Below are positions 19,941-48,574 of a stretch of DNA of 64,000 bases, piece after piece (positions within the stretch are counted from its first letter, which is position 1; every line of letters begins with the position of its first letter). Under the pieces are notes generated by a model that was given only the letters and a program-made list of their open reading frames with translations, did not search any database and was not told where the DNA came from. This stretch comes from an uncultured Frankiaceae bacterium (GTDB lineage Bacteria > Actinomycetota > Actinomycetes > BP-191), in NCBI GenBank assembly GCA_964651395.1, contig CAZYXZ010000003.1, positions 52,227-116,226 on the forward strand, written 5' to 3'. The translations under genes and the position numbers were made by a program.

Positions 19941-19983
19941 CAGCAGCAGAACATGGTGGACGAGCAACCTATGTGCCCCTTCG

Positions 19984-20643: not shown

Positions 20644-20904
20644 CTTCCGCCCGGTGGCACGCTCGAGCACGATCTGCTTCTCACGAAGGTCTGCAATTTC
20701 TCACGCTTCTTAGGCAACAAGCCTATTTCGCAAGAAGCCCGCATCGTCGGCATCTAGTGCCGGCACAGCGCCGCGCAGGCGAATTCCTAAGCGTGAGCCG
20801 GCCGCGCAGGCGATTTTGTTCCGGGTGGTTTCCAGGCGAATTTGATCTCGTACCCGGATCCGCTCTCTCGCAGAGAAGCCAATGACTCTGTTATGTCGGC
20901 GGGA

Positions 20905-21423
20905 TCAGTCGGACGGGCCAAGATCCGCCCTGGTGAGGGCCGCCCGCAGCGCAATGCCCTGGGCGGCCAAATTCTTAACGCCACCTTGCTCGCGATCGAT
21001 CGCACAGACCACGGTGTCTATGAGTGCACCCGCGGCGCGCAGCTCGAGGCAGCCCTTGACCAGTGCGCCACCGGTGGTGACGACGTCCTCCACACCAACG
21101 ACGCGCAGGCCGTCGACTGGCCCGCCTTCGGCCACCTTGCACGTGCCATAGGGCTTCGCTTCCTTGCGAACGAAGACCGCTGGGATCCCGGTCAGCTGCG
21201 ACATCACGGTGACGAGCGGGATGCCCCCCATCTCCATTCCGGCCAAGACGTCGCATGCGGGTACCAAGGCGACCATGTGCTCGGCTACCTGGCGCAGCAA
21301 TGCCGGCTGGCCCTCGAACAGATACTTGTCGAAGTACTCCTTGCTGACCTGGCCCGAACGTAGAGTGAAGGAACCAGTCAGGTGGCAGGCGTCGTAAACG
21401 AGCCGGCCGAGGGGGGTTGCCAT
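20905..21423 (-). CDS. pyrE: Orotate phosphoribosyltransferase
   Basis: 172 aa with a PRTase fold and a PRPP-binding loop (VVGVEDVVTTGGALVKG); it matches actinobacterial PyrE (LRSGQVSKEYFDKYLFEGQPALL). Start is ATG 21423. Confidence 0.7.
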   Translation of the reverse strand: MATPLGRLVYDACHLTGSFTLRSGQVSKEYFDKYLFEGQPALLRQVAEHMVALVPACDVLAGMEMGGIPLVTVMSQLTGIPAVFVRKEAKPYGTCKVAEGGPVDGLRVVGVEDVVTTGGALVKGCLELRAAGALIDTVVCAIDREQGGVKNLAAQGIALRAALTRADLGPSD

Positions 21424-21540
21424 GTGGTCATCCTTCCGGACCCGGGTCGTGAGTCCGCGCGGGAGCAACGGGCCACGGTGACCAGGTCCCGCTGCGCCTG
21501 ATGAAGTGGCTTCGCCAGGCGCTGTCTCGCTGGTAGCTGA

Positions 21541-22215
21541 TCAACGCCCGCCGTAGTAGCGAATAGCCGACTCACCAAGGGCGCGCGCGAAACTCCGGTC
21601 GACGGTGTATCCGACTGCGGCGCCCGCGATGGGCACTAGCTTCACAAAGGACGTGAGCGACTTCTCGCCCGCTTTGGTCAGGATCTTTCGACTGACCACC
21701 TTGTTGACCCGCTTCATCGTCTCTCGCGTGACGATCTTCTGGACCCACTTCTTACCCATGTCGTTCGCTGCAGCGACTCCAAACGTTCTCAGCGCGCTGA
21801 CAGCGCTGTTGCCGGCCAGGATGAGTACTAGATCTTGCCGGAGATCGGGGCTGTCGAGTTCGTCATAGACGGCGGCGACCGCCAGCACTAGCGACGCTTG
21901 CAGGGTCAGCACCGACGAGATATTCAGCGCCAGAGTCGGGGCACCACCGAAGCCAGTGGCGAAGCTGGCCGCTCCCACCCGGCGGGTGCCACGCTTGACG
22001 ACCAGACGGGCAAGTTGGTCCTGCGAAAGACCAGGATTTCGTTTGCGGGCACGCTCGACGTCGGCGACGACGATCCCGCGGGCGCGAGCGATGGCGCCCA
22101 GTAGCAGATCGTCGAGGCGACCCACATCGTCCGAAGGGTCCAACTCTGGGCTGCTAACCGGGCCGTCGACAGTCATAAGAGCGCCATGGCATCCGTCATA
22201 TCCCGAGTCGATCAC
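21541..22215 (-). CDS. Hypothetical protein (possibly EcsC-family-like)
   Basis: 224-aa ORF with internal hydrophobic segments. The family assignment is only a tentative recollection. Confidence 0.45.
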   Translation of the reverse strand: MIDSGYDGCHGALMTVDGPVSSPELDPSDDVGRLDDLLLGAIARARGIVVADVERARKRNPGLSQDQLARLVVKRGTRRVGAASFATGFGGAPTLALNISSVLTLQASLVLAVAAVYDELDSPDLRQDLVLILAGNSAVSALRTFGVAAANDMGKKWVQKIVTRETMKRVNKVVSRKILTKAGEKSLTSFVKLVPIAGAAVGYTVDRSFARALGESAIRYYGGR

Positions 22216-22432: not shown

Positions 22433-25400
22433 CTAATCCAGGTCGCCGGTAGCCGAGCTAGGGCCTTCCTCGGACTCGGTAAAGGGGACATCGATCGCGC
22501 GCCGAGTGCGAATTCCACCCAAGTGAATCGTCGTGGATGGTCGCCACTCCAACTCGGTGAGTGGTGACTTGAAGATGCGCATCCTCGTCGGCCAGCCGCG
22601 TTCCAGACCCGCGATAACGGCAAGGAAGTACGCATTGCCTTGTCGCGATGCTTGATGTGACTCGGCCGCCGTGAGCGAAACCTCATCGGGCATCTCCCTG
22701 GCATGCGCCTTGATCTCGAAGTATCGAAGAAGCTCATCGACGGCGTCTGCTCCAATACCGTGTTGGTTTCGGAAGTCAGTCAGCTCGGCTATCTCTCTGA
22801 CACGAAGTGTCTCTCTGAGTAGCTCCAGCCCGAACGTTTCGACGTCGTCCTGGGTAAAGGCAGCTGGCGCAGTGCGCGGCGCCGCGCGCGGCTTGGGCGC
22901 GGGCAAGTTGTCCTTTAGTGGCCGCTTGCCACGTCGCTTGTTGGTCGGCTGGCCCTCACCGATCTCTATGGCTGCGACGTCAACTTCTACGCTCGTCTTC
23001 AACTGCCGTGTGGGCGGCGTGTCAGGGTCTTCAGTGTCTGTCGCTGTGGGTGTTGCCGGTCTGGCGACAGGTCGGCGCCCCTTCCGTGGTGCCTGCAGTT
23101 CAGCTGCGAGGTCCGCGAGTGAGTCGTCGCTGTCGCCGGCCACAGCGATCTGAATGTTCTCCGGCGCTTCACCTCGCTCAGCCCGACGCCACGCCTTCTC
23201 CCACAACAGGGCCACCTTTGTGCGATCGACCATGTCCTCGCCGGAACGGCCGAACAACGCAGCGATGGCAAGGCCGCCCGTCTCGGAATCGCGCAGTGCC
23301 TCCACGGTCCGAGCGGCGACGATGGTCGGAGTGCGGGAGACATGAGCCCCGATGGGAACCGCAACGGACCGACTCTCGGGTAGTTGAACTTCGACCGAGA
23401 GGTGGGCGGTCAGAGCGACCTGGGCGCCGATCAGCTCTGCCCATGTGAGGGACAGCCCGGCGTACACATCCGGATCCTCAGCGAGGATCATGTCGTGTAG
23501 ATGACGTACGGCGGCTTCGAAGGTCTGACGGACAGTCACGCCCGCGAGCTGTGCTGCCGGCGTCAGGCCATTGAGAGCGAACTCGGAGCGGTCGAGCGTT
23601 ATCACGCCGGCCCACGATGGAAAGTCGCCAAAGGAATCCAGGCCGCCGGGCGGGATCCACACCTGTGCATGCTCGCCCAGCGCCTCCGCTAGTGCGCGGT
23701 CGTCCACCGCGTAGATCGGTCGTTGCGTCTGCCAACCGCTGACGGTTTGGAGCGGAATCTTTCGCAACTCATCTCGCTGACGGCCCCGCATTTCTGGGTG
23801 CCTGCTCAGGTAGCGATAGACCTGCAGAAGGACTCCGCGCTCGTGTGGCTGTGGCGGGTCTTGTGCAATCTCGTTGAGCACGGCAAAGCAGACGTCCGGC
23901 TTGGGGGTACTGAGTGCCAGGACTTCCCATAGCGGTTCCAACTGGGGCTGCTCTGGGACGAATGGTCGTCTTGATCCAAAGATGGGATCGCCGCGGTAGA
24001 CGGCGGATGGGGGATACCAGCGTCCGTGCCAGTACAGCAGTCCCGGCGACTTGCGACCGATGCCAAATCTTCCGCGCAGCTGGGCAACCGTGAGCTCGCC
24101 AACCAGTGATGAGGACGTGGCGGTACCTAACGCCGGGCAGCGTTGCGCGAGGGCGAGATACAAGCTGACCGCGTCCATCGGATCCACCGTGTCAGCGTCC
24201 GTGTCGCGCAACGCCGTGAGCTCGCGGAGGACGTCCTCGGTGGTCGGAGAGGTCTTCATGCCTAGGGCATGGAGCACTGTTAGATCGCGATCTGCATCGA
24301 CTTCCGCTGCGTACCACTCTGGTTGCTCACCGAAGACACTGAGCATCTCCGGGGTTCGGACGGCGAGCTCTCTTGGAGCCTTGGCCTCACCTGCCATGTT
24401 CGACATCCAGGGGGCACTCGCCAGCCGCGATAACCAGGTCGCCGGCACCGGCCCAACTCGCTTCCAGCGGTAGTCCGAGTACACGGCGTGTGCGAACTCG
24501 TGGTCTGCATAGACGCGCCTCCAGCCGCGGCTGATGGTGGCCAAGAGGCCGCGCGCCCGTTCGCGGCGGGACCTGACAGGGCTTGCGACGATCTCTGCTA
24601 CGACAGCATCCAGGTCGGCTGATACGCGGTCTGCTTGCAGGTGCGTCGGCCGTCGCTTCAGTGCGTCGATCGCCAAGGCCTGCATCGCGCCGTTGGCCTG
24701 CCTGTGGATAGGCGACGCGGGATCATCGCGACGGAAGTCGCGCTGTCTGGGGACCGTCAGCCGAGGTACCACCTCCGCGCCCAGCGAGGAAAGAAAGGCT
24801 CGAGCACCCAAGCCCCCGCCTTCGGTCGGCCTCAGCAAGGCGCTGTACCGGCCGTCTATCCACAACAACCCGGCCGCAGTGCCGGCTGCGGGAGCCCAGC
24901 CAGCACTGCCCCCTTCGATTCGACTTGGCAGGTACGCGGTGGGTGGTGTGACCAAGCGTTCGGATCTGCTTCCGTTCTCGTGGCTGAAACCGGCTAGTAG
25001 TAGGCGTTGCCCGAGGGCAGGCGCGAGCCGGTCTCTGCGTGCGGCTGGCGCTGCCGCGAGAAGGTCCCTGATCTGCGTCAATTGCGAGTCACTCGGGGTG
25101 ATCTTGCTCTCGTGGTCAGCGATGACCTGTAGAGCAAGCTCGGGTGTGATGACGCTGTGCAGCGTGCCCGCATGCTTGAGCCAGGCCGTCACGTCTTCGC
25201 CAGCCGAGGCCCCCAGGAACTCAGGATGCAGCTGCCACGCGAAGCCCAGCTGGTGCAGGAGTTGCCCTGCTGGGCCCCCATCGTGCTGGCTTACGAGCAC
25301 ACCTTGGGAAAGTGTCTGTGGTGGCCGCACGCGGGCACCGCTGGCGAGGACCGCGCAACGATGCGTGGCGACTGTTCTGCCGAGGCCCGCGGCGAGCGCG

Positions 25401-26908
25401 GCCCCGACCAGGTCTGCGTACCACGCTGGTGGTCGCGGGTGGCGCTCATCTTCGAGAAGAGTCAGCGCCAGCGGCAAGTCGACTCGTTTGCTCACGGCCA
25501 GCTCGTCGAGAACCAGTCGCCACCGACCACCAGGATCCCGCACCGCGTTGGCGAGGGGTGTTGCCTCCGGCGCAAGCTCGGCGATGTCTGCTGCTGTGAG
25601 AACTCCGTCCAGCTCGTCAACTTCGTACGCCAATTGCTGAAGGGCGACGCCGTCGGGCATCGGCAGCAGGAGACTCTCGGCGATCTGCCTATGCACACCC
25701 TCGATGTGCTTACGCAGTCGGTCCTGGAGCCACGCGTCTTCCGCCACGAAAGACTCGTCCGCAAGCGGCACGATCTCCCAGGTCAGCGCCGGTGTGGCGC
25801 TGGCTACCTGAACCGCGATCGTCGACACAAGACGAGCGAGCTCATCTATCAGCCAGGCATTCCATGGTTCGTGTTGAAGGCGGGATCGGGCCGTGTCAGG
25901 GTCGAACTGGGCTTGCAACGCGTACGGCATTCGCGTGCGGAGCGCGATTGGCAGTCCAGCATGAATTCGCCCCGGCTCCGCCCGCGAGGGGACGGCAACT
26001 GCGATCGGGACCTCGTCGGCGGTTTCCTTTCCCGCACGACGCAGGGTGGTTGGGTGGCGGACGGTGGTCGAATACCGCGTCCAATAGCGGTCTTCACTCG
26101 GGTCGCGCACTAGGTCGACCTCGATTGACAGATCCCGCCAACGATCTGTGGTGATTGTTTCGAGGACGATGCCTCGCCGGTCGAGTTCGCGCGCTTCCGC
26201 ATCGAACAGGCGGACGGTTGAGACCGCATCCAGGAACAGGAGAAATCCGGCGTCGAAGGTACTGAACCAATCGACGACGGTGGCGGCGCTGACCTCCTCC
26301 CTGAGTGCCAGCACTAGCAACGTGTCGAGCTGCTCAGGGTCGTAGAAGCCGGGAATGCCCGGGACGGCCGGGATGATCCGGGGACCATCGCTTTCCGCTT
26401 CGAAGTGGTACGGGTGGCAATGAACCGCCATCGCGGTGCTGATCCTGCTGAGCGTCTTTAGGCCGATGCCGAACTTGCCCTTGCTGGCCGCCTCTCCTCG
26501 CTTCGTCGATACATACGCCAAGGCCATCGCCGCGGTATCGACGAACCCAATGCGAGCCCCGTCATGGGCGACGAGAAGTTCCGTTCGAGAACCCACGGTG
26601 CGAATGAGGAACCGAACTTCGTGCGCGCCCTCGTCGTCTGCATTTTGCAGAATCTCGACGAGGCCGGTCAGGCCCTCCACGTTCAGCTGTTCGGCACTGA
26701 ACGTTGCCCCTTCTAGGACGTCGCGAAGTAGACCAGGCGTCTCGTCGCGAATCAGCCGGCTCAGCTCTTGGAGGGCGGATTCTGCGAAGCTGGTGGTGAA
26801 GCGGTCCTCTATCGAGTGCTTGCGCCCATGCCGGTACAGCTGATCAGCTGCCTGTGTCCCGGCAGCACTGTCATCCGATGTCGGTCCTTCGCCGCCGTCG
26901 TTGTTCAT
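22433..26908 (-). CDS. Giant 1491-aa protein: N-terminal sacsin/Hsp90-like GHKL ATPase (HATPase_c_3-type) + long middle region + C-terminal DUF3883-like (restriction-endonuclease-like) domain
   Basis: Bergerat motifs are present: VEILQNADDEGA (motif I), HDGARIGF (motif II) and KGKFGIGLKT (motif III). The C-terminal ~150 aa (ELLRYFEIKAHAREMPDEVSLTAAESHQASRQGNAYFLAVIAGLERG) resembles DUF3883. It starts 285 nt downstream of the second tniQ on the same strand. Confidence 0.8.
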   Translation of the reverse strand: MNNDGGEGPTSDDSAAGTQAADQLYRHGRKHSIEDRFTTSFAESALQELSRLIRDETPGLLRDVLEGATFSAEQLNVEGLTGLVEILQNADDEGAHEVRFLIRTVGSRTELLVAHDGARIGFVDTAAMALAYVSTKRGEAASKGKFGIGLKTLSRISTAMAVHCHPYHFEAESDGPRIIPAVPGIPGFYDPEQLDTLLVLALREEVSAATVVDWFSTFDAGFLLFLDAVSTVRLFDAEARELDRRGIVLETITTDRWRDLSIEVDLVRDPSEDRYWTRYSTTVRHPTTLRRAGKETADEVPIAVAVPSRAEPGRIHAGLPIALRTRMPYALQAQFDPDTARSRLQHEPWNAWLIDELARLVSTIAVQVASATPALTWEIVPLADESFVAEDAWLQDRLRKHIEGVHRQIAESLLLPMPDGVALQQLAYEVDELDGVLTAADIAELAPEATPLANAVRDPGGRWRLVLDELAVSKRVDLPLALTLLEDERHPRPPAWYADLVGAALAAGLGRTVATHRCAVLASGARVRPPQTLSQGVLVSQHDGGPAGQLLHQLGFAWQLHPEFLGASAGEDVTAWLKHAGTLHSVITPELALQVIADHESKITPSDSQLTQIRDLLAAAPAARRDRLAPALGQRLLLAGFSHENGSRSERLVTPPTAYLPSRIEGGSAGWAPAAGTAAGLLWIDGRYSALLRPTEGGGLGARAFLSSLGAEVVPRLTVPRQRDFRRDDPASPIHRQANGAMQALAIDALKRRPTHLQADRVSADLDAVVAEIVASPVRSRRERARGLLATISRGWRRVYADHEFAHAVYSDYRWKRVGPVPATWLSRLASAPWMSNMAGEAKAPRELAVRTPEMLSVFGEQPEWYAAEVDADRDLTVLHALGMKTSPTTEDVLRELTALRDTDADTVDPMDAVSLYLALAQRCPALGTATSSSLVGELTVAQLRGRFGIGRKSPGLLYWHGRWYPPSAVYRGDPIFGSRRPFVPEQPQLEPLWEVLALSTPKPDVCFAVLNEIAQDPPQPHERGVLLQVYRYLSRHPEMRGRQRDELRKIPLQTVSGWQTQRPIYAVDDRALAEALGEHAQVWIPPGGLDSFGDFPSWAGVITLDRSEFALNGLTPAAQLAGVTVRQTFEAAVRHLHDMILAEDPDVYAGLSLTWAELIGAQVALTAHLSVEVQLPESRSVAVPIGAHVSRTPTIVAARTVEALRDSETGGLAIAALFGRSGEDMVDRTKVALLWEKAWRRAERGEAPENIQIAVAGDSDDSLADLAAELQAPRKGRRPVARPATPTATDTEDPDTPPTRQLKTSVEVDVAAIEIGEGQPTNKRRGKRPLKDNLPAPKPRAAPRTAPAAFTQDDVETFGLELLRETLRVREIAELTDFRNQHGIGADAVDELLRYFEIKAHAREMPDEVSLTAAESHQASRQGNAYFLAVIAGLERGWPTRMRIFKSPLTELEWRPSTTIHLGGIRTRRAIDVPFTESEEGPSSATGDLD

Positions 26909-27193: not shown

Positions 27194-28678
27194 CTACTGA
27201 CACGTTCCGGACGACATATGTCCCGTCCCTAATCGGCTCGCGCACGGGCACCACCATCCTTCGATGGAGCAGGGGGCAGCGGTTACCCGGTCAAGGCGGT
27301 GGCGCGCCAGTCGGCGAGTAGGCCACGGCCGCGTCCAGCCGCTGCTTGATGCGAGTTCACGTGCCAGCGCCATCGCCTGCTTATCAAGGCGGACCTTGTC
27401 GGCTGCTGGAAGTGCGTTGTGGACGTAGTGGGCCCACCGCTTTCCCTGCTCAGCCGGCAGTCCCAGGCTTCGGGCGGCATCCGCCCACGACGTGGTGTGC
27501 GTGCGGGCTACCGCGAGGCTGATGTACGCACGCAAGACGTCGAGCGTCGGACGGCGCAGAGCGTGAAGGTCTGCCGGGACCGCGCACGACCACGCGAGCT
27601 GTGGCATGTCGGCAAGGAACGCTGAGTGATCGGAGGTGGTGCGGGAGCGATTGAGACGGGACGACGGTCGGCCGGTCCGCCTCAGGACGTGATCCAGGAA
27701 CTCGCGCAGGACTGGTTGCCTGCCGCGGGCAAGCTGCTCAGTCAAGACCTTTCCCGCCGGCACTCTGTTGTGGCTGGCAGCCTCCTCAACGAACGCGCTG
27801 CTTGCGGAGGCAGGATCCGCCGCTTCCGCCCAGCGCCGGGCGCCGGAAACCAGTTCGCGGACACCCGCGAGATCTCTGGGAGGGCTTCGCCAGAAGCGTG
27901 TCGTTGCCGGCTGGGCTGCAAGCCCGTTGCTCAGCCAGTTCTGCAAGGACAGGACTTCGCGTAGAGCGCGCAGGCCTTCGTTCGCTGCTATCTCCACACC
28001 CGCGACACGGATGGGGCTGCCGGCGAGGACGGTGTCCACGAGGTGTTGCCAGGCAGCCTCGTGTGGCTGCATCGGCTCGGTGACGGCGGTCCGCAGATCG
28101 CCGCCACAGGGCCTTGCTCCCCGTCCGCGACCGCGGACTTCGGACATCTCTGGACGGTGGCATCGCGCGGGTTGACGGACCTGCTCCATGAAGACTGGTT
28201 GAGCACTGGTGCCGTTGCCGCCGTGGGGCCACCCGAGGCATGTGGGGCAGCGGTCAGCGAGTGTGCGGCCATGCTCGATGCATCCGACGTTGACGGCGAT
28301 TCGATGTGCGAGTTGCCACGCGCCGTCGTCGGCCAAGTGCTGCGGGCAGAAGAAGGAACCGCCAAGGTGCACCCATTCGCGGCAGGCCCACAGTCCCAAG
28401 TGCTCGCGTGTGAGTGCACTCGGAGGGGTAACGGCGTGCGTGTATGCAGCGAGCGTCATTCCGCGAACTTCTGCCGCGTCCAGATCAAGCGAATCGGCGA
28501 CATCCTCGATCAATTCGTCGGGTAGGTATGCCCCCCAGCCGGCTCGGAAGCCTGCGGGCAGCCCCACCGCATCAAGCACGAACCCGAACGGCGCCTGAAG
28601 CGCGGCGCTGAGCCGTTCGAGGTAGCTGTCGTAGCCCTCGCCGGCGATCAGCAAGGGCATCGTGGGAAGTTGGGTCAT
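27194..28678 (-). CDS. tniQ: TniQ-family protein (second paralog; TnsD/TniQ-like target selector)
   Basis: N-terminus MTQLPTMPLLIAGEGYDSYLERLSAAL and a Cys/His Zn-finger-like region FCPQHLADDGAWQLAHRIAVNVGCIEHGRTLADRCPTCLGW. It overlaps the upstream tniQ by 4 nt. Confidence 0.7.
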   Translation of the reverse strand: MTQLPTMPLLIAGEGYDSYLERLSAALQAPFGFVLDAVGLPAGFRAGWGAYLPDELIEDVADSLDLDAAEVRGMTLAAYTHAVTPPSALTREHLGLWACREWVHLGGSFFCPQHLADDGAWQLAHRIAVNVGCIEHGRTLADRCPTCLGWPHGGNGTSAQPVFMEQVRQPARCHRPEMSEVRGRGRGARPCGGDLRTAVTEPMQPHEAAWQHLVDTVLAGSPIRVAGVEIAANEGLRALREVLSLQNWLSNGLAAQPATTRFWRSPPRDLAGVRELVSGARRWAEAADPASASSAFVEEAASHNRVPAGKVLTEQLARGRQPVLREFLDHVLRRTGRPSSRLNRSRTTSDHSAFLADMPQLAWSCAVPADLHALRRPTLDVLRAYISLAVARTHTTSWADAARSLGLPAEQGKRWAHYVHNALPAADKVRLDKQAMALARELASSSGWTRPWPTRRLARHRLDRVTAAPCSIEGWWCPCASRLGTGHMSSGTCQ

Positions 28679-30057
28679 CCGGTGGCCTCTCGCGTGGCCA
28701 AGGTGCGGGCCGAGGTAGACGGCCACCGCGCGTGTAGGTCCTGAAGGATGCGGAACCACGCATCTGGCCCGGGGCCTTTGAGGGCCTCCATGGCAGCACC
28801 GAGTTCGGCGAGCAGTGTTTCGCCGATCTCGCCTTCAGCATGGCGAAAGCGCTTCGCGTCGAGGGCAGCGGCAACTGCGGCCAGCCAACAGCGCGCAGAC
28901 GCCGGGCCGTCTGGAATCGTCTCTTCGACGAAGTCTCGGAGCGCGGGTTCATACAGGCCGATCGCGTCCTCGTCGCTCAGCACGTGGGGTGGTTGCCGGC
29001 AAGGGACGTTCGACCAGAGGCCAAACAGTGTGCGTTGCGACTTTGGCGCGCGGAGGTGTGCCCCCTGTGGCCGGATGCTGTTCAGGTGCTCTCGGGCTTC
29101 GGCCAAGTCCGCGAGCATCGCCTGGGATGTGTACTTGCTCACGCCACGATGAGTGACGAGCTGGCTTGCGACTCTGCCGAGCAGCGTCTTCCACGAGTCG
29201 TCTCGCCGGGCGATGGAGACTGCCGCTGGCAGAAGCACGCCGGTCGTTGCGCGGCCGAGCATCTCGTGCCTACCCAGGCTTTCCCGAGGCCAACGATCGG
29301 TGCGAGAGGCCACGACGCCGTCGATGCCGAAAATGATGAGGAGCTGAGCCCAGTCAGCGACCGCGGCCAGTTGGCCGGGGGCCATGTCCGGCTCGTCGAT
29401 GAGCCGCTGCAGCCATGTACTGGATGCCAGCAGCCCCGGCACGTCCGTGGCATCGAGCGGCGTCGCGTCAGCCAACGAGGACTGACAGTGCTGGCACGAT
29501 GGGGGGTCGGAGCGTGCGCTGAGTTCGAGGGGGGCATGGCAGCCCGCTTGCCCGCAGCTCGAGCAGTCATCGAGGAGCAGGACGCCGTGCTTGACGCAGA
29601 CCGGCTGGAGTGGGACGAGCCACGTGAATCGGTCAACCGTGGGGCGCTCGGCCAGGCACAGTGGGCAGTACCCGGAGGTGTGACCGGGCATCCATTTGCC
29701 TGGGCGAGGGTCGCGGGGGTGCAGGCCCCACCGTGAGGCACCAAGGCTTGCGACGTCATGCGAGATGGGGGTGAGGCTCGAGAACCGGAGGCCGGTCATC
29801 GCCGCCAGCTGCTCCGCGCTACGGTCGAGTGCCGTGGCGAGCTGCTGTAGGTCGCCATCGGAAGGCAGCATCAATCGGCAGGACCAGCGCTTGGTGAATT
29901 TCACGTCGTGGCGGTGACCGGGATCGAATCCAACGGCTCGAAGGAAGGTGTGTAGAGGCAGATCGTTGGCGCGTGCCAGTCGCCGTACCAAGCTCTGCAA
30001 TGACTCGTCGGCGGCAGGCTCAACGTCGGACGGCAGCCCCGCGGCATCATCAGTCAC
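28675..30057 (-). CDS. tniQ: TniQ-family protein (first paralog)
   Basis: Classic TniQ N-terminus ESLQSLVRRLARANDLPLHTFL and a Cys cluster YCPLCLAERPTVDRFTWLVPLQPVCVKHGVLLLDDCSSCG. It overlaps tnsC by 4 nt (ATGA). Confidence 0.8.
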   Translation of the reverse strand: MTDDAAGLPSDVEPAADESLQSLVRRLARANDLPLHTFLRAVGFDPGHRHDVKFTKRWSCRLMLPSDGDLQQLATALDRSAEQLAAMTGLRFSSLTPISHDVASLGASRWGLHPRDPRPGKWMPGHTSGYCPLCLAERPTVDRFTWLVPLQPVCVKHGVLLLDDCSSCGQAGCHAPLELSARSDPPSCQHCQSSLADATPLDATDVPGLLASSTWLQRLIDEPDMAPGQLAAVADWAQLLIIFGIDGVVASRTDRWPRESLGRHEMLGRATTGVLLPAAVSIARRDDSWKTLLGRVASQLVTHRGVSKYTSQAMLADLAEAREHLNSIRPQGAHLRAPKSQRTLFGLWSNVPCRQPPHVLSDEDAIGLYEPALRDFVEETIPDGPASARCWLAAVAAALDAKRFRHAEGEIGETLLAELGAAMEALKGPGPDAWFRILQDLHARWPSTSARTLATREATG

Positions 30058-31088
30058 GCGGACAGACGCTTCCGCGAAAGGGATGCCGACTCGAGCTCGG
30101 CGAACCCAACGCGCTCTGTCTGCCCGACTGCTCGATAGGCGGTGCGCGCCACCAGGTCAAGCGCGGCACCGATTTTGCCGAGGCTCTGGTTGAACAGGAG
30201 CGTGAGGGCGGGGCTCTCTAGGAGGTCACTGCCGGCCTGGTTGCTCAGCCGCAGCATCACTGCCTGGCTGTGGATCGCGTCGCGGAGCATCAGTCGCGCG
30301 TCGACGTCGTCAGCGTCGACGGCCGGGAACTCAAAGGTTTCCTTGCGCTCGTGCAGTTGGGCCAGCAGGTCGCGGAGCTCACCTTCCGGCACCAGCATCG
30401 GGTTGCACAGCGGCGACTGGTCGAAGTCAAGTGCGGTGAAGAGAACGATCGCGGGCACGAGGTCGACGACGCGCTTGAGGAAGTTCACCATGTCGGCGAA
30501 CTTCGACGACGCGAAGTTCACCATCCCGGCCCTGCGCGCCGACGCGTTGTGAACGTCGTCAATGATTACCAGGCGAACACCGTAGGTGTGGCATTCCTCG
30601 GCGAACTGGTCAAGCATCTCGTTCGCCGTCATCCCCAATCTCCTCGGCGGGATCCCGAGGCTGGCCAGCAGGACGCGCGCGAGGTCCTTGATTTCACTAG
30701 TGGGCGCCTTCACGCATACCACCGGGATGATCTTGTGGCGGCGATCGCCGTCCAAGTAGTCCCGTCCAGTGCGCCAGTCCCGTTCGCACAGTTCCAACCC
30801 GAGGCGAATCGCGAAGGCAGTCTTGCCCGATCGTGCCGGTCCGCCGACACAGAACAACTTGGAGTCCGTTCGAGGTTCCTGGAGGACTTGCCAGGCGTAG
30901 TCGAAGGCGGCGGTCCAACGCGGATACTTCACGTGCCCGAGCCCAATGTTGTAGCGCCGGCGGTTGTCGTCGTCGAGGTCCATTGGCGCGTCACGGTGCC
31001 GAACGTGCCAGTCGTAGTAGCGCTCCAGCATCGGGAGACGGGTCGGCAGTTCCGCGGGGCGCTCGGGGACCCACAACGTCGCTTTCAC
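30054..31088 (-). CDS. tnsC: TnsC/TniB-family AAA+ ATPase (transposition regulator)
   Basis: Walker A FCVGGPARSGKT and Walker B LVIIDDVHN. It sits between the Mu-type transposase and tniQ. Confidence 0.85.
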   Translation of the reverse strand: MKATLWVPERPAELPTRLPMLERYYDWHVRHRDAPMDLDDDNRRRYNIGLGHVKYPRWTAAFDYAWQVLQEPRTDSKLFCVGGPARSGKTAFAIRLGLELCERDWRTGRDYLDGDRRHKIIPVVCVKAPTSEIKDLARVLLASLGIPPRRLGMTANEMLDQFAEECHTYGVRLVIIDDVHNASARRAGMVNFASSKFADMVNFLKRVVDLVPAIVLFTALDFDQSPLCNPMLVPEGELRDLLAQLHERKETFEFPAVDADDVDARLMLRDAIHSQAVMLRLSNQAGSDLLESPALTLLFNQSLGKIGAALDLVARTAYRAVGQTERVGFAELESASLSRKRLSA

Positions 31089-33091
31089 GGCTCTCCGACG
31101 GGCGGCAGGTCCCAGGGGTCAAGTGCGGTCGGTGGCGCCGCGCCTACCCCCACGGGCTCCATGGTCGGCGTGTGCCGGCGGGTGTTGCTCAGCGCAATGT
31201 CTCGGAGCGCATCGCTGACGAGTGCTACCGCCCCGCGGTACCACTCCTTCGGCAACCGGCTGGCGTCCAGCAGCGCATCACGAACCAGTTGAGCTCTGAC
31301 GTCGTTCAGCGGCGCCAGCGGCATGCCGTTGTTGCGGTTGGGCACCATGAGCTTGCGACCGTCCATGTCGGTCACCCAGATGCACTCCAAACGCGTGGGG
31401 TCGAAGCGCACCGACAGCGGCCTGGGCTTGAAGTGGTCGTCGCCTTGCGAGTGCCGCTTCAGGTCTTGGATCTCGTCGCAGTCGAAGTCCTCGCCGAGGA
31501 CACGGATGCCCTCATCGTTCGCCACACGCTTGCTGGCAGTAAGCAGGTTGAGCGCGGCAAGTGGGTCTTCGTCAATGGGGATCTCGCCGGCCGTCTCGAG
31601 CTCGATCCAGAACTTCTCTCGCGGTGTCATCTTGAGCGTCTTGTGCCAGGTGTTGTGGTAGATCTCCTCGATGTAGAACATGAATGCCGCCTCGAGGGTG
31701 TGGATGTCGACAGGCGCGAGTTGCTTGCCGCGTCCGCGGTGTTCGGCACGGCGCCCCTTGGACCCAGGCCACGACTGGATGACGCTGCTGAGTCGGCGGA
31801 ATAGCGCTTCGACGATGGCCTTGGCCCACCCGGTGCCGGGTGGAGCGATGTCGATGCTGGAGCCGGCTCGCAAGAGCTGCGCAAGGGCGCGTAGGCCGAC
31901 CATCTGCAGGCCGTTGTCCGTGCCAGTTCGCGAGATTGCGCGCTCGCGTTCCCCAACCTGTTCCAGCACTTCCTCCGTCACCAAGACTAAGGGCGGGACG
32001 CACGGCGCTGTCGCCTCCTCGGTCGGCCACAGGGAGCCCCCTCGTCGCATGTTGAACACGAGCAGGCATACGTCTTCGGCGGAGTACGCCTTCGGTACGA
32101 CGCGCAACGCGAGGACGACCCGTGTGCAGACGTCGATGGCGAGCAGCAGGGCCGCATTGATCAGCTTGCCGTACTGGTCCAGGACGAAGGCGTTGATGTC
32201 CCAGGCGTCAATCTGTACCTGCTCGAAGGGGGCCGCTGCATGGAATCGGTCCTGTGGGCCCCGCTTGCGATCCGCCTTGGACTGCCGGCTCGCGGCAGCC
32301 GCGTTGACACGCTTGCCGCGCAGCATCTCGCGCGTGACAAGGTCGAGCAGGCGACGGGAGTAGTGGACCGGGTCCAGGTCGGTTTCTTCGCGCAGGTAGC
32401 GTCGGAAGTTCTCGTAGTGGACCGCGATGTCCTGGGTGTTCGCCGACGCGACACCCTCGGCCCATGCCCGTCCGGCAGCAACGAGCCGTGGGTCCTTGCC
32501 ATGGAGGGGACCGAAGACGCGCTTCAGCTGCGTCTTGGTGAGAACGGCAGTGATGCTGCCGCCGCTTTTCTTTAGGGCGGCAATGCGCTCGTAGAGCGCC
32601 TTCGGGCGCACGTCGGTGTGGCCCTTTCGGCGCAACTGAACACTGAGTGCCTCGTAGGCCTCCTTGCGGCGCCTCTTCCCCTTCTCGGGCTGCCTCGCGC
32701 CAGGGTCGACGTCGTCCGGGTGCAATGGCTGTTCCGCGGCGATGTCGCCGTGCGGATCGCCGGTGATGAATTTGGTGAGTTCCTCGCGGAGGCCCTTTGC
32801 CATCTTCTGTTCGTGGTCCGTCAACCTGTCGAGGATCTCGTCTTCGAAGATGCGGGGACGGTTCTCCTCAGCATCTGATGGCCCCAGCGGTCCTAGTGCC
32901 TCCTCCGCAAAGTCGGCCAGGCTGAGGATGAATTCGTCACCGTGTGGATCGGTGCATACCGCGCCGACCGAGAAGGCTGTTAGCAGTTCTTTGGGCTGGC
33001 GCTCGAATCGCTTGAACGTCCAAATGCCCCCGACGCCGTGCCAAGTGTGCTCGCGCATGACCATGTAGTGGGGCAGTCGGCGGGTGCTCAC
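31085..33091 (-). CDS. tnsB: TnsB/TniA-type Mu-like DDE transposase (rve integrase core)
   Basis: DDE triad context: QVQIDAWDINAFVLD, TDNGLQM and YHNTWHKTLKMTPREKF. Size is 668 aa. Confidence 0.85.
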   Translation of the reverse strand: MSTRRLPHYMVMREHTWHGVGGIWTFKRFERQPKELLTAFSVGAVCTDPHGDEFILSLADFAEEALGPLGPSDAEENRPRIFEDEILDRLTDHEQKMAKGLREELTKFITGDPHGDIAAEQPLHPDDVDPGARQPEKGKRRRKEAYEALSVQLRRKGHTDVRPKALYERIAALKKSGGSITAVLTKTQLKRVFGPLHGKDPRLVAAGRAWAEGVASANTQDIAVHYENFRRYLREETDLDPVHYSRRLLDLVTREMLRGKRVNAAAASRQSKADRKRGPQDRFHAAAPFEQVQIDAWDINAFVLDQYGKLINAALLLAIDVCTRVVLALRVVPKAYSAEDVCLLVFNMRRGGSLWPTEEATAPCVPPLVLVTEEVLEQVGERERAISRTGTDNGLQMVGLRALAQLLRAGSSIDIAPPGTGWAKAIVEALFRRLSSVIQSWPGSKGRRAEHRGRGKQLAPVDIHTLEAAFMFYIEEIYHNTWHKTLKMTPREKFWIELETAGEIPIDEDPLAALNLLTASKRVANDEGIRVLGEDFDCDEIQDLKRHSQGDDHFKPRPLSVRFDPTRLECIWVTDMDGRKLMVPNRNNGMPLAPLNDVRAQLVRDALLDASRLPKEWYRGAVALVSDALRDIALSNTRRHTPTMEPVGVGAAPPTALDPWDLPPVGEP

Positions 33092-34149
33092 GACGTTCGC
33101 CCGAACACAGCCCTACCTACGCCGGCGTTCAACCGCGCCCGCAGCCCCTGACCCTCTGAGACGCGGCGAGTCATGTCCACCAGATCCGCGATTTCTGGTC
33201 GCGTCATGATGTCCGGCCGTTGCTCGAAGGCAGGCTCCCTCGTGATCCAGGTGGGGCCGATGATCGGCGGGCCGAGCGGAAGGTGCAGACGGCCGTTCTG
33301 AATCAGGTGCTCGGTCGCGTGGAGCGGAGCGACAGGCCCTCTGAAGGTGGTGCGGATTCGCTGCATCGAGCACCCGTTCGCCGGCAGCCACTCCTCGATC
33401 CGTTCGGCGAGGGCGACATAGCGCCTGGGGGGATCCGCCCACTGGTCGAGGGCTCGCAGGTTGAAAGCACGCTGTGCCGTCATGGGGTGGCGGACCTCGT
33501 ACGTCCAGCCCACGGACTCTGCGAAGCGTGCCGTCAGCTCCCACTGCAGCAGCACGTCGAGCGGCGGCCGCTCGTAACTGGTGACGTCGAGCAGAACCCT
33601 CTCGCCGGCGTCGGTGAACACCAGCAGATCCGGGTCGTGCCGCAGGTCCAGGCTGCCGTGCCGCCAAGACAGCCGGACCATCTGGGTCACGAGTGCTCGG
33701 TCGGGCCTGCCGCGGAGCGCATCCCACATGTGCTCGAGCTCGTTCTGGCTCGCGCCGGCGACATGGAACGGCACCCGCCGCTTGATCAACTGGAACCTGA
33801 TCTGATTCGTGCGGCCCTTGTAGTTCGCGGCTCGGCGGACCTCAGCCAACCGAAGTGGATCGATGGCCGCGAACTCCGAGGGAGTGAGCCGCGTCTGCTT
33901 GCCTTCGTGCTGGTCCGTGGCGTCGAGCAGTGCCAGACAGGAGCAGCTTTCGGCCAGCGAGTCCAGCGTCGCGTCATCGACCAGAGCGTCGAAAACGGCC
34001 CGCACACGCTCATCCCGCCCGATCTGCAGGCGGGGGATGTCGTCGACGACGTAGACGCTGCGGGTGCGGCGTCGCTGCGGCCGCGGCTGCCTGCGCGTGG
34101 TCGCTGACTCCGTCACGCGGGAGAGCAGGACGCGCACAGGCACCGACAT
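33088..34149 (-). CDS. tnsA: TnsA-like endonuclease subunit (putative)
   Basis: First gene of the ATGA-coupled operon. It has restriction-endonuclease-like motifs (NELEHMW ... DPDLLVFTDAGERVLLDVT) resembling the TnsA E...D...K region, but the canonical Lys position is not evident. Confidence 0.5.
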   Translation of the reverse strand: MSVPVRVLLSRVTESATTRRQPRPQRRRTRSVYVVDDIPRLQIGRDERVRAVFDALVDDATLDSLAESCSCLALLDATDQHEGKQTRLTPSEFAAIDPLRLAEVRRAANYKGRTNQIRFQLIKRRVPFHVAGASQNELEHMWDALRGRPDRALVTQMVRLSWRHGSLDLRHDPDLLVFTDAGERVLLDVTSYERPPLDVLLQWELTARFAESVGWTYEVRHPMTAQRAFNLRALDQWADPPRRYVALAERIEEWLPANGCSMQRIRTTFRGPVAPLHATEHLIQNGRLHLPLGPPIIGPTWITREPAFEQRPDIMTRPEIADLVDMTRRVSEGQGLRARLNAGVGRAVFGRTS

Positions 34150-35322: not shown

Positions 35323-36885
35323 ATGACCAAGCACAAGACCCGCGAAACGGTGGACATCTACAACATCGCCGATCGCCTATGGGCGACCGCCGACGAGCTA
35401 CGCGCCAACTCCCACCTGAAGGCCGCCGAGTACTCCGTGCCGGTTCTCGGCCTGATCTTTCTCAAGTTCGCCGACAGCAGGTTCGCCCAGGCCGAAGCCG
35501 AGTTGGCAGGGAGCAGCACCGGTCGTCGCGAGATCGGCAAGGCCAACTACCAAGCCAAGAGCGTCCTCTACCTGCCTGATGGGGCCCGGTTCGCCAACCT
35601 GCTCAACCTCAAAGAGGGCGACAACCTCGGCAAGGCGATCAACGACGCCATGTCGGCCATCGAGGCGGAGAACCCGTCGCTGAAAGGCGTCTTGCCACGG
35701 ACCTACCAAGCGCTGACCAACGACACATTGGTAAGCCTGCTTCGCTCCGTGAACTCCATCCTCGGCGACATCGAAGGCGACGCCTTCGGCAAGGTCTACG
35801 AGTACTTCCTCGGCAAGTTCGCAGTGGTCGAAGGTTCAAAGGGAGGCGAGTACTTCACGCCTACCCCGATCGTTCGCCTGATCGTCGAGATCATCGAACC
35901 GTTCAACGGCAAGATCCTCGACCCAGCATGTGGGTCAGGCGGCATGTTCGTTCAGAGCGCCCGCTTCGTGGAGGAACACCGCAACGGCAAGTCCGGTCGG
36001 CTCTCGATCTACGGCCAGGAGCGAGTGAACGAGACCATCCGGCTGTGCAAGATGAACCTCGCCGTGCATGGGCTTGAAGGCCAAGTGCGCCAGGCCAACA
36101 CTTACTACGACGATCCCTTCAAGTCTGTTGGTCAGTTCGACTACGTGATGGCTAACCCGCCCTTCAACGTCAACAAGATCGACAAGACCAAGCTTGAGGG
36201 CGACAAGCGATTCCGGCTCGGAGTGCCGAAGGCCGACAACGGCAACTACATCTGGATCCAGACCTTCTACTCGGCGCTGAACGAGAAGGGCCGCGCTGGG
36301 TTCGTCATGGCCAATTCAGCCGCTGATGCAGGCGGGAGCGAGTTGGCAATTCGCCAAAGGATGCTGGCGGAGAAGGCAGTGGATGTCGTTGTCTCGGTTG
36401 GACCGAACTTCTTCTACAGCGTGACGTTGCCGGTCACGCTGTGGTTCCTGGACCGGGGCAAGGCCACCGACGAGCGCGCGGAGAAAGTGCTGTTCATTGA
36501 CGCGCGCAGAGTCTTCCGCCAGATCGATCGTGCGCATCGCGACTGGACCCCCGACCAGATTGAGTTCTTGGCAAACATCGCCCGCATGTACCGAGGCGAG
36601 GAGCCAGAGTTGGTCCACGGATCAGCCTTGCTGTCTTCAGCGTTTCCGGACGGGAAGTACACCGACGTTCCGGGGCTTTGCGCAGTTGCGACCATTGAGC
36701 AGATCCAAGAGCAGGGTTGGAGCCTCAATCCCGGCCGCTATGTAGGCGTCGCAGAGGCGAAGCACGACGGAGTCGACTTCAAGACACGCTTGGCTGAGCT
36801 GACCAAAGAGTTGGACGAGCTGACCACCGAAGCTGCACAGCTCCAGTCAAGGATCGCAGCCAACGCCGCAGAGCTGCTGCGTTGA
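35323..36885 (+). CDS. hsdM: Type I restriction-modification system DNA methyltransferase subunit
   Basis: HsdM N-terminal domain ([34 protein letters not shown]), AdoMet motif [10 protein letters not shown] and catalytic NPPFN. Confidence 0.9.
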
Positions 36886-38117
36886 ACACGTCGTGGCCGG
36901 CGGTCCGACTCGCCAACGTGTGCGATCGGATCACGGTGGGTTGGGTTGGCCCGATGGTCGACCAGTATGTGGACGCCGGAGTTCCCTTCCTGCGGTCGCA
37001 AAACATCACGCCGTTCCGCATTGCCACAGAGAACATCAAGTTCATCACGCCGGAATTCCACGAGCGCATCCGCAAGTCAGCGCTTCGCCCCGGAGACGTC
37101 GCAGTTGTCCGCACGGGTTACCCCGGCACAGCCGCGGTAGTGCCTGCGTCACTAGGCGAGGCCAACTGCGCCGACCTCGTCGTGATCACCCCTGGCCCGC
37201 AGCTCGACTCGCGGTTCCTCGCAGCAATCTTCAACTCGTCCTGGGGGGTTGCCTCTGTCGGAGGCAATCTCGTTGGCTCTGCTCAGCAGCACTTCAATGT
37301 CGGGGCAGCCAAACACATGGAAGTGCGACTTCCCCCGATAACGATCCAGCAGAAGATCGCTGGTGTCCTCACGGCCTACGACGCCCTCATCGACAACAAC
37401 ATGCGTCGGATCAAGCTCTTCGAGGAGTTGGCGCAGCGCATCTACCGTGAATGGTTCGTTGAGTTTCGCTATCCCGAGCACCGAACGGTTCCGCTCGTCG
37501 ACACGGAACTTGGCTGTGCGCCGCAAGGCTGGTCGGTAGAGCCATTGTTCGCAGTAGCTGACGTTGCCTTCGGGTTTGCATTCAAGTCCACGGGATTCAA
37601 CGAAGAGCACGGAACGCCGGTGGTGCGAATCCGTGACATCCCTAATGGAGAGAGCCGGACGCTAACCACGGAGGACCCCGGTGATCAATATCGCATCAGG
37701 GACGGCGACATCCTCATCGGCATGGACGGCGACTTCCACATGGGCCGATGGTCAGCTGGTGAGGCGTGGCTCAACCAGCGGGTCACACGCGTTCGGCCAG
37801 CGACTCCGGGCCTCTCGACGTACTCCCTCTACATGGCCCTCGAGGATCCCATCGCAAGGTGGAACGAAGCAATCGTGGGAACGACGGTTGCTCACTTGGG
37901 CAAGCGCCACCTCGAGAGAATCAGCATCCTGATCCCGCCTGCACCGTTGCGAGAGGCAACGTCACGCCTGCTTGATCCCATCCTTTCCATGGAGATCACT
38001 CTTCGGAAAGCCAACCGCCAACTCCGAGCCAGCCGCGATCTCTTGCTGCCGCGCCTGATCGCAGGTGACCTCGAATTGGCAAAGCTCACTATCGACGTCG
38101 ACACGGATGCCTCGTGA
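36882..38117 (+). CDS. hsdS: Type I restriction-modification system specificity subunit
   Basis: Two target-recognition domains separated by conserved coiled repeats. It overlaps hsdM by 4 nt. Confidence 0.85.
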
Positions 38118-41399: not shown

Positions 41400-41858
41400 A
41401 TGACACGAGTGCTAGGCATCAACGTCGCGGGTTCGACGGCCTATCTCGCGCTCTGCGACGACGCGGAGATCACGAACGACAAGCCGGAGAAACTCGTCGC
41501 ACCCGATGGGCTGGCGGCTGACAGTGGCACGCTCGCATTTCTCGACGACATCGGCCGTGTGCTTGGTCAGCTCCGGGTTGAACGCGTTCGCGTCCTGGAC
41601 CCCGAGCCGACTTATTCGACCAGCGTCCAGAGTGTCGTCCCGAGGATCACGATCGAGACCCTGTTCCTGCTAGCCGCGTGGCAGCGAGGCCTCGACGCCG
41701 GCCGCATCAGTCGCGCCCGTATCCGGTCGCTGCTCGACCTGGGCCGATCGGGCTCGCTCAGCTCCTTGGCCGCGAGCGTGACCAAGCCCGTAGGCTCCTC
41801 GTGGACCGGCAAGCGCGATCTGGCGGCGCTGGCAGCGCTCGCCGGCGGGCGGGAGTGA
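41400..41858 (+). CDS. Hypothetical protein coupled to the Ser/Thr kinase (N-terminus faintly RNase-H/YqgF-like)
   Basis: GAGGA RBS and ATG 41400. The protein reads MTRVLGINVAGSTAYLALCDD.... Its stop is 2 nt before the kinase ATG, inside the kinase RBS (GGGAGTGAccATG). Confidence 0.45.
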   Translation: MTRVLGINVAGSTAYLALCDDAEITNDKPEKLVAPDGLAADSGTLAFLDDIGRVLGQLRVERVRVLDPEPTYSTSVQSVVPRITIETLFLLAAWQRGLDAGRISRARIRSLLDLGRSGSLSSLAASVTKPVGSSWTGKRDLAALAALAGGRE

Positions 41859-41860
41859 CC

Positions 41861-48256: not shown

Positions 48257-48427
48257 CTGCGGTCCAATCGATGCGCTGTCGTGGGGTCTACACGGCCCTT
48301 GCGGTCCCATCAGAGATATCACTCGGGTGTGACAACTTGGCCCGGTGTGGGGCATGCCTGTGGACGACCGGGGACAACGGATGGCTAGGGGTCGGACTCC
48401 GCTTCCGCACGGTCATGGTGATCAGGT

Positions 48428-48495: not shown

Positions 48496-48574
48496 AATTC
48501 GCCTCGGAACGCCCGCGATTCGCCGAAGTCGCCCCGTGACGCGGGAATTTGCCCCTAGGGTGCTGTGTCAGCAT

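Follow-up and report, generated by a model that had tools for sequence, protein, structure and literature searches.

A Tiamat-family TmtA protein, assigned by profile match, as cargo of a Tn7-like defence island at the 3′ end of dnaB

The gene described here, tmtA (22433..26908, minus strand), lies within a 64,000-nt stretch of DNA, the window, and its 1491-aa product can be assigned by a full-length profile match to Tiamat, a named family of anti-phage proteins. It is carried by a Tn7-like element of 27,816 bp, a probable mobile defence island located directly after the dnaB stop codon, and the protein would act as an ATP-dependent clamp controlling its own nuclease. To this reading as a whole, mechanism included, we attach a probability of roughly three in four. 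What had appeared as a candidate new architecture is a named system, and the value of the analysis is in this respect mainly corrective.

The tmtA reading frame is intact and its product includes, in order, a GHKL ATPase, a central region specific to the family, a disordered linker and a PD-(D/E)xK nuclease. Together with the homologues, the assignment as TmtA draws on the PADLOC profile PDLC03968 (E=0, 1241 bits), whose positions 5-1484 of 1486 match residues 9-1480. With five further PADLOC TmtA profiles the match is confined to the N-terminal ~300-400 residues. Pfam domains NOV_C, SACS and HATPase_c_3 are found below threshold only, and DUF3684 (PF12449) gives no Pfam match even at E<=10 in the window protein and three homologues. 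Tiamat was described as a single-gene TmtA system annotated as "Hsp90, DUF3684, DUF3883"; the only gene marked as verified is that of Bacillus cereus FORC_005 (1590 aa), while an Enterobacter TmtA is marked "x", that is, tested with defence not seen (Millman et al. 2022, 10.1101/2022.05.11.491447). Their DUF3684 annotation probably stems from a more sensitive profile-profile method. The initial annotation of this DNA had held that the architecture was not among the named systems, yet the Tiamat domain description is the same and the system is included in both PADLOC and DefenseFinder. Its view of the protein as a defence-type protein is supported. The term "uncharacterised" stands in part: our literature search found no paper on the mechanism of Tiamat and the protein is only distantly related to the sole verified member (22% identity, limited to the first ~400 aa), although the family is already named.

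The GHKL/Bergerat ATP-binding domain (residues ~75-225; 26234..26686, minus strand) is supported by its motifs, family conservation, NF047352 and Foldseek. Motifs I (E85-x3-N89), II (D116-G117), III (G144-x2-G147-x-G149) and IV (T196) can be read directly from the sequence and are conserved across the family alignment; in some homologues the motif II Asp is replaced by Asn. The NCBIfam model NF047352 ("sacsin N-terminal ATP-binding-like") scores above its cut-off. Foldseek matches of the N-terminal part include Hsp90 (E 4e-8), GyrB/ParE, sacsin SR1 and MORC3/4, and an Hsp90-like middle-domain fold is also present in the predicted model. As modelled, the N-terminal and middle parts have an Hsp90/sacsin-like fold with an intact ATP-binding site.

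The central region (residues ~350-1250; 23159..25861, minus strand) is kept within the family and matches neither Pfam families nor solved structures. It is followed by a predicted disordered linker rich in Pro, Arg, Lys and Thr (residues ~1251-1340; 22889..23158, minus strand), with low pLDDT (30-47 in the AF2 model) and poor conservation in homologue alignments A1 and A4. The C-terminal DUF3883/NOV_C domain (residues ~1345-1480; 22469..22876, minus strand) is built around an alpha-beta-beta-beta-alpha-beta core whose strand 2 carries the D and strand 3 the (D/E)xK. It adopts the PD-(D/E)xK fold, in which a D...ExK site is conserved, and is a predicted nuclease, with E1357, D1378, D1388 and E1398-x-K1400 as the candidate active site. 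Motifs, fold matches and the PD-(D/E)xK fold agree with the earlier description of a 1491-aa reading frame with a complete Bergerat set and a C-terminal nuclease, in which one protein combines a GHKL ATPase and a restriction-endonuclease-like domain. These features provide a residue map for mutagenesis of TmtA (E85, N89 and D116 for the ATPase; D1388, E1398 and K1400 for the nuclease), which also defines a family-specific core of ~900 residues and a disordered tether.

By analogy with Hsp90, MutL, GyrB and MORC, the N-terminal domains of TmtA may dimerize on ATP binding to form a clamp. The large central region would sense or hold the invader, most probably invader DNA. Clamp closure would position or release the nuclease domain, tethered by the ~90-residue linker, which would then cut foreign DNA, and ATP hydrolysis would reset the protein; no partner gene would be required. 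Dimerization of the GHKL domains driven by ATP is proposed as the likely gate of the C-terminal nuclease against invading DNA. The same domains could also compose an abortive-infection effector, in which a triggered nuclease degrades both host and phage DNA and the cell dies, protecting the population. Many single-protein ATPase-nuclease systems act in this way, no methyltransferase or other self-marking partner was found at the TmtA loci, and the element also carries a CBASS system with a TIR-SAVED effector, so that suicide-type immunity is already present in the island. We regard this as possible rather than probable: the sequence features fit targeted cleavage equally, and MutL, MORC and similar GHKL clamps are directed at particular DNA structures and not indiscriminate.

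The distribution of the family is patchy, across Chloroflexota, Actinomycetota, Proteobacteria and Gemmatimonadota, and 87 full-length homologues were found at 27-39% identity. Plasmids seldom encode homologues (5 of 72,556 records), and none was found in phage records. The window protein is closer to the Enterobacter TmtA (30% identity) than to that of B. cereus, which falls in a different TmtA profile group. No neighbouring gene is conserved across 80 tmtA homologue loci and Tiamat is a single gene without an obligatory partner. Since tns homologues occur within 10 kb at none of these 80 loci, the Tn7 link belongs to the window locus and not to the Tiamat family. A role in conflict between mobile elements, such as destruction of plasmids or rival transposons or stabilization of the Tn7-like element itself, is another explanation, which we consider unlikely. 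It would account for the location of tmtA on a transposon, for the lack of an anti-phage phenotype in the closest tested relative, that of Enterobacter, and for the integrases and IS transposases found near homologues. However, the family was defined by enrichment beside known defence genes (Millman et al. 2022, methods, 10.1101/2022.05.11.491447), phage protection is known for one member, Tn7 genes are linked to none of the 80 homologue loci, and the scarcity of homologues on plasmids and their absence from phage records also argue against it.

The element carrying tmtA includes a Tn7-like core set in a single minus-strand operon in which all five reading frames are intact. These are a second copy of tniQ (27194..28759, with translation probably starting near 28678; Pfam TniQ 51 bits, cut-off 27), predicted at 494 aa in an independent contig (L001), the first tniQ (28675..30057; 70.2 bits, cut-off 27), a tnsC/tniB AAA+ regulator (30054..31088; Pfam TniB 33.1 bits, cut-off 22.4, and AAA_22 41.9 bits), a divergent tnsB-like DDE transposase (31085..33091; Mu-transpos_C 20.2 bits, just below the cut-off of 21.7) and a divergent tnsA-like endonuclease subunit (33088..34149; NCBIfam TnsA_like_Actin E 5.5e-14, 52 bits, below the 110-bit cut-off). 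TnsA and TnsB are therefore recognizable, below curated cut-offs. The tnsB-like gene also gives weak matches to IS481/IS3 DDE cores and, in tblastn, is 26-28% identical to "Mu transposase C-terminal domain" proteins of actinobacterial plasmids; no TnsB relative of the element was found. As noted initially, 285 nt separate the second tniQ from the start of tmtA. One contig of run SRR13766249, independent of the window, shows the same gene arrangement.

Both ends of the element can be recognized. The left end (20753..20860, plus strand) is composed of a target-site duplication, TCTAG (20753-20757), the terminus TGCCGGCACAGC at 20758 and GGCGAATT-like sites in three places, +21, +52 and +78. The right, dnaB-proximal end (48470..48578, minus strand) has the terminus ...GCTGTGTCAGCA at 48573, TCTAG at 48574-48578 and, counted from the terminus, GGCGAATT-like sites at +21, (+41), +50, +71 and +85, four or five in all. 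The element (20758-48573) thus has TG...CA termini, and its ends form imperfect inverted repeats of about 90 bp; their alignment scores 21, where 500 shuffles averaged 6.2 (sd 2.4, max 14.5). The first sub-terminal repeat is at +21 in both ends and the asymmetry in the number of sites (3 vs 4-5) is Tn7-like. The 5-bp duplication is perfect and abuts both termini; its right copy overlaps the stop codon (48575-48577) of dnaB (48575..50422, minus strand; Pfam DnaB, DnaB_C), the replicative helicase gene, at the 3′ end of which the element inserted. This gene is intact, and the DnaB C-terminus (...FVDMSPTT, then stop) is as long as in relatives. Termini, repeat arrays and duplication enclose tmtA, which is therefore cargo of the Tn7-like element, as had been proposed.

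The remaining cargo lies on both sides of the operon. Close to the left end are a phosphoribosyltransferase-domain protein (20905..21468, minus strand; Pfam Pribosyltran 29.9 bits) and an EcsC-family protein resembling the PADLOC defence candidate PDC-S29 (21541..22215, minus strand; Pfam EcsC 37.4 bits, PDC-S29 E 2.5e-27), of which no homologue was found beside tmtA at the 80 loci. On the other side are a type I R-M operon, hsdM-hsdS-hsdR (35323..41278, plus strand; PADLOC MTase_I E 6e-209, Specificity_I E 8e-57, REase_I E 4e-162), a Ser/Thr protein kinase resembling PD-T4-6 and mad6 (41678..42967, plus strand; Pfam Pkinase E 8e-33, PADLOC mad6 E 1.7e-39, PD-T4-6 E 5.8e-34) and a type II CBASS operon (43913..48355, minus strand; PADLOC Cyclase E 4e-69, E1-E2 E 2e-97 together with JAB, SAVED_TIR E 1.3e-33). 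The latter encodes, all on the minus strand, a CD-NTase (47132-48355), an E1/E2-JAB (Cap2-Cap3) fusion (45076-47562; Pfam ThiF, Prok-JAB) and a TIR-SAVED effector (43913-45085; Pfam SAVED, TIR_2). The element is probably a mobile defence island in which at least four defence systems are carried together.

The proximity of tmtA and the tns genes might instead be coincidental or historical, the repeats at 20758 and 48573 not being functional ends and the whole representing a fixed, decayed island. In favour of this, 14.4 kb separate the tns operon from the dnaB-proximal end, an atypical arrangement in a Tn7-like element. TnsA and TnsB are also divergent, and GC is low in the left flank (16.4-20.7 kb), as it is in the element with tmtA. 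No second copy, relative or empty site was found to confirm the ends, and in relatives whose DnaB is 69-82% identical the dnaB loci lack a Tn7 element and have diverged too far to stand in for an empty site. Decay of this kind is nevertheless improbable given the form of the termini, the shared +21 position and the unequal site numbers, the perfect duplication, a position exactly behind the intact stop codon of dnaB, an end alignment more than 6 sd above shuffles and the integrity of all five tns reading frames. A housekeeping role for TmtA, as an Hsp90/HtpG-like chaperone or as a MutL/topoisomerase paralogue, is scarcely credible: the best structural matches of its N-terminal half are indeed the Hsp90 family and GyrB, but at 9-12% sequence identity, and the protein lacks the Hsp90 C-terminal dimerization domain, the MutL C-terminal domain and a Toprim domain, ends in a PD-(D/E)xK nuclease, is encoded in a low-GC transposon and is patchily distributed across four phyla.

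If TmtA is indeed cargo of such an island, then Tiamat, PDC-S29, type I R-M, the kinase and CBASS would travel as one mobile unit. The element, complete and precisely bounded at 27.8 kb in a high-GC actinobacterium, is a further case of the link between Tn7-like transposons and defence. For the TmtA clade common in Actinomycetota and Chloroflexota, anti-phage defence is a putative function. More speculatively, the element may represent a new divergent actinobacterial Tn7-like lineage, with TniQ targeting the dnaB 3′ end and defence cargo on both sides of the operon, and the target of the TmtA clade may not be that of the verified Bacillus Tiamat but, for example, other mobile DNA instead of phage.

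In many respects the window protein resembles the verified B. cereus Tiamat: both are single large proteins of ~1500 aa with an Hsp90/sacsin-like GHKL ATPase, a long middle region and a DUF3883 nuclease, although they differ in profile group and show the low identity given above. According to a survey, Tiamat in Actinobacteria is almost always chromosomal, whereas the window tmtA is on a Tn7-like transposon. The sacsin SRR/SR1 region has the same GHKL motif sub-type and is the structural match of highest sequence identity (18-20%), and plant NO VEIN is the source of the name NOV_C (DUF3883) of the C-terminal Pfam domain. Both are eukaryotic, with chaperone or developmental roles, and sacsin ends in DnaJ and HEPN domains rather than PD-(D/E)xK. 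GHKL ATPases of the MORC/paraMORC and MutL types are reportedly linked to restriction systems, a proposal attributed to Iyer, Abhiman and Aravind in 2008. The link is mentioned in PMC3710099. TmtA shares with them a GHKL ATPase with a nuclease, a conflict context, structural matches to MORC3/4 and a presumed ATP-dependent dimeric clamp on DNA; unlike them, it has a unique central region of 900 residues and no CW, S5-only or HEPN module, and no membership was detected at the sequence level. The element shares with Tn7-like transposons carrying defence cargo (Benler et al. 2021, PMC8649781) TnsA, TnsB, TnsC and TniQ, TG...CA ends, asymmetric sub-terminal repeat arrays, a 5-bp duplication, insertion immediately 3′ of a conserved essential gene, the multi-site end being the one nearest to it, and R-M and CBASS as cargo. 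It differs in its target, the dnaB 3′ end, which was not found mentioned in the Tn7 literature searched, in the mid-element position of its tns operon, with 14.4 kb of cargo before the gene-proximal end, and in its very divergent TnsB and TnsA. Finally, one survey places Tiamat with Shedu (SduA) on the basis of a PD-(D/E)xK nuclease effector in single-gene defence; unlike TmtA, Shedu is much smaller, has no GHKL ATPase and carries a DUF4263 nuclease.

The tmtA ORF (22433-26908, minus strand) comprises 1491 codons, starts with ATG and carries no internal stops. Its product can be assigned to the named Tiamat family as a new and divergent member: the PADLOC TmtA profile PDLC03968 matches it from end to end (E=0, 1241 bits, residues 9-1480 against profile positions 5-1484 of 1486) and five further TmtA profiles of the PADLOC library match the N-terminal third alone. 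Tiamat, of which TmtA is the sole gene, belongs to the systems that Millman et al. 2022 named; in that paper the name occurs in figures and tables only. The initial annotation had placed this architecture outside the named systems, which was wrong since the TmtA profile covers the protein and Millman et al. 2022 had already named Tiamat. Two tested Tiamat genes, each with the annotation "Hsp90, DUF3684, DUF3883", are included in the supplement of that study: SG165 from Bacillus cereus FORC_005 (1590 aa), marked verified, and SG164 from Enterobacter sp. ku-bf2 (1429 aa), marked "x". Over the first ~400 residues of each, as printed in the supplement, the window protein shares 30% identity with the Enterobacter fragment (E 2e-56) and 22% with the Bacillus fragment (E 8e-9). 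According to their methods, clusters sharing domain organisation, with similar size and a defence score >0.3, were pooled as one single-gene family and the TmtA clade of the window protein is presumably covered through this pooling.

All three motifs quoted in the initial annotation are present (EILQNADDEGA at residues 85-95, HDGARIGF at 115-122 and KGKFGIGLKT at 143-152). In an alignment of 28 full-length TmtA homologues (27-39% identity), H115, G117, G144, F146, G147, G149 and T196 are invariant, while E85, Q88, N89 and D92 are conserved in at least 90% of the sequences. Together, these conserved N-terminal residues cover all of the Bergerat motifs. Invariant positions of the C-terminal domain are D1378, G1386-A-D1388, E1398 and K1400; E1357 and D1391 reach at least 90%. 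Pfam matches of the window protein are all below threshold (NOV_C 18.6 bits, SACS 15, HATPase_c_3 13.8); one homologue, P0004, is above threshold for NOV_C and HATPase_c_3, and the window protein itself is above the cut-off of the NCBIfam "sacsin N-terminal ATP-binding-like" model. Residues 1-700 as modelled with AlphaFold (pLDDT 82.4, pTM 0.70) match full-length Hsp90 proteins (E 4e-8), MORC3/4 and ATPase fragments of GyrB/ParE, as well as sacsin SR1 at 18-20% identity. The model of residues 681-1491 (pLDDT 71.7) includes a family-specific ordered region extending to ~1250, a predicted disordered linker rich in Pro, Arg and Lys (~1251-1340) and then a compact alpha/beta domain, the predicted nuclease, in which strand 2 bears D1388 and strand 3 bears E1398-x-K1400. 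The central ~900 residues matched nothing. When all PDB sequences were searched with a profile, sacsin SR1 was the only match and no solved Tiamat structure was among them. An internal duplication of the GHKL module was also considered and rejected, the sequence RGRFGIGRKS at residues 945-954 being neither significant nor conserved.

A profile of TmtA residues 681-1491 retrieved 391 clusters (50% identity) at E<=1e-30, and most of the listed matches are ~1500 aa long with the match at residues ~680-1500. A scan of one genome per species identified 188 TmtA loci, in Chloroflexota, Actinomycetota, Alpha- and Gammaproteobacteria and Gemmatimonadota. At the 80 loci fetched, no homologue of the window TnsA, TnsB, TnsC, TniQ, EcsC or PRTase (phosphoribosyltransferase-domain) proteins is encoded within 10 kb of the TmtA gene; the EcsC gene, which matches the PADLOC candidate PDC-S29, and the PRTase gene were thus rejected as TmtA partners, having no homologue within this distance at any other homologue locus. 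An HsdM-like methylase is present at 9 of the 80. Among the 134 nearest-neighbour ORFs are Mokosh MkoA/C (3), RosmerTA-type RmrA (4), DpdJ (2), type II methylases (2), capH/capP (2), phage integrases (3), IS66/IS4 transposases (4) and UvrD-type helicases (4), together with ordinary metabolic genes. This fits variable, partly defensive islands without a fixed partner gene. Among 72,556 plasmid records, 5 carry a TmtA homologue, and 50,697 phage records yielded none, a rarity which agrees with a survey that found Tiamat in Actinobacteria to be almost always chromosomal.

TmtA combines an intact ATP-binding site, an intact nuclease site, an Hsp90-like two-domain N-terminal half and a flexible tether, and has no partner gene. 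GHKL proteins act as ATP-closed dimeric clamps and, by analogy, TmtA may do likewise. In the simplest model, invading DNA or some product of the phage would be recognised by the central region, closure driven by ATP would license the tethered nuclease and hydrolysis would reset the protein. The sequence is compatible with two outcomes of such activity, cell death and destruction of the phage DNA alone. TmtA may instead serve in conflict between mobile elements, although this is less likely, and it is very unlikely to be a housekeeping chaperone or repair protein. The sole statement on mechanism that we found is a review table which puts Tiamat among the systems of unknown mechanism; a 2024 survey classes it as a single-gene PD-(D/E)xK system and the literature searched yielded no mechanistic study.

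As had been claimed, tmtA starts 285 nt past a TniQ ORF of the same orientation. This ORF is itself preceded by those for another TniQ, a TniB/TnsC AAA+ protein and, further upstream, a TnsB-like transposase and a TnsA-like protein, the five ORFs together covering 27194-34149 (minus strand). Between about 17 and 50 kb of the window, GC falls from ~71% to 60-67% and GC3 from ~0.9 to 0.72-0.84. The reading of tmtA as cargo of a Tn7-like element is confirmed, with new evidence for the boundaries. The ends were first seen as two oppositely oriented clusters of GGCGAATT-like octamers (20778-20842 and 48496-48553). A generic repeat search and blastn at word size 7 on the window had not picked them up because their similarity is broken into short blocks. 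The left end reads TGCCGGCACAGCGCC... from 20758, the right end, in reverse complement from 48573, TGCTGACACAGCACC..., and in both the first octamer lies at +21. An end-to-end alignment over 100 nt gives 68 matches and a score of 21, compared to 6.2 ± 2.4 (maximum 14.5) for 500 shuffles. A 5-bp target-site duplication, TCTAG, directly abuts both termini (20753-20757 and 48574-48578), the right copy including the stop codon of the replicative helicase gene dnaB (48575-50422, minus strand). The DnaB C-terminus (...FVDMSPTT) has the same length as in its relatives and the gene is therefore untouched. With termini at 20758 and 48573, the element is 27,816 bp long. In an independent assembly of run SRR13766249, gene order is identical from tnsC to the left flank. 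The locus is a typical, neatly delimited and probably mobile defence island.

Other boundaries were tried and rejected. For two tandem elements with a junction near 34.6 kb, there is neither an internal TCTAG nor a convincing internal end. A TGTGGG end near tnsA, in the style of Tn7, was considered from an inverted TGTGGGC[CT]GTC pair (34437/34539), which has no far-side partner and no target-site duplication; 13-mers similar to it occur at chance frequency. The two copies, TGTGGGCCGTC and GACAGCCCACA, lie ~290 nt upstream of tnsA with 81 nt between them. The Tn7 terminus is TGTGGGCG, which the pair resembles, and they may represent a relic end or chance. The sequence GACGGCCCACA at 17156 falls within an ORF for a likely lipoprotein (16724-17200). 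Concerning an RNA attachment site, the window contains no tRNA gene and no Rfam match at gathering score.

Cargo on the dnaB-proximal side of tnsA includes hsdMSR, a PD-T4-6/mad6-like kinase and a type II CBASS (43913-48355) composed of a CD-NTase (47132-48355), a single 828-aa E1/E2 plus JAB fusion equivalent to Cap2-Cap3 (45076-47562) and a TIR-SAVED effector (43913-45085). This complete CBASS sits directly inside the dnaB-proximal end of the transposon. As listed, its cyclase ORF overlaps the E1/E2 ORF by ~430 nt, so that one of the two starts, that of the cyclase or that of Cap2, needs refinement. Across the tns operon from this cargo, tmtA is followed downstream by the EcsC-family gene (PDC-S29, E 2.5e-27) and the PRTase-domain gene (together 20905-22215), which may form another small defence module. 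The best inverted repeat of the window (31 nt, 93.5% identical, arms 41577-41607 and 41998-42028) covers the intergenic region between hsdR and the kinase together with the 5' portion of the kinase ORF.

The 1.17-kb spacer between tnsA and hsdM (34150-35320) has no recognisable gene, and a 210-aa ORF (34725-35357, minus strand) has no family match. The spacer carries four exact copies of the octamer GGCAACTG, all on the plus strand (34399, 34782, 34995 and 35062), from a total of 8 in the whole window (1.9 expected). The copies lie in differing frames of the 210-aa ORF and therefore represent a DNA-level motif, possibly the binding sites of a regulator.

Outside the transposon, the left flank includes csoR (16049-16330) followed by a P-type ATPase, several small ORFs without a family match, the likely lipoprotein ORF among them, and an epimerase gene (19059-19769). 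GC and GC3 between 13959 and 20750 are also below those of the core genome; the region downstream of dnaB next to which the transposon inserted was therefore already variable. GTGAGAAGT-like repeats occur in this flank (18968-20704), with three direct copies (19860, 19891 and 19915) upstream of an unannotated ORF (19984-20643, plus strand), two inverted copies (20676 and 20696) downstream of it and another at 18968. The 15-mer TGAGAAGTTGATCTT is identical at 18969 and 19916. The repeats may serve as operator sites or delimit a small element.

Neither TnsB nor DnaB relatives led to an empty site or a sister element. The protein search with TnsB gave the same protein only, and no close relative for comparison of the ends; its plasmid matches reach only 26-28% identity. 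The nearest DnaB proteins, from Frankiales- or Mycobacteriales-like metagenome genomes, are 69-82% identical and have unrelated downstream genes. Relatives of DnaB are 760-870 aa long with LAGLIDADG intein domains. The DnaB of the window is 615 aa long and its DnaB_C match is split into two separated stretches, which suggests a mini-intein.

The layout of the element can be compared with that of Tn7. An unusual feature is the 14.4 kb of cargo separating the dnaB-proximal end from tnsA. [quoted passage not shown]
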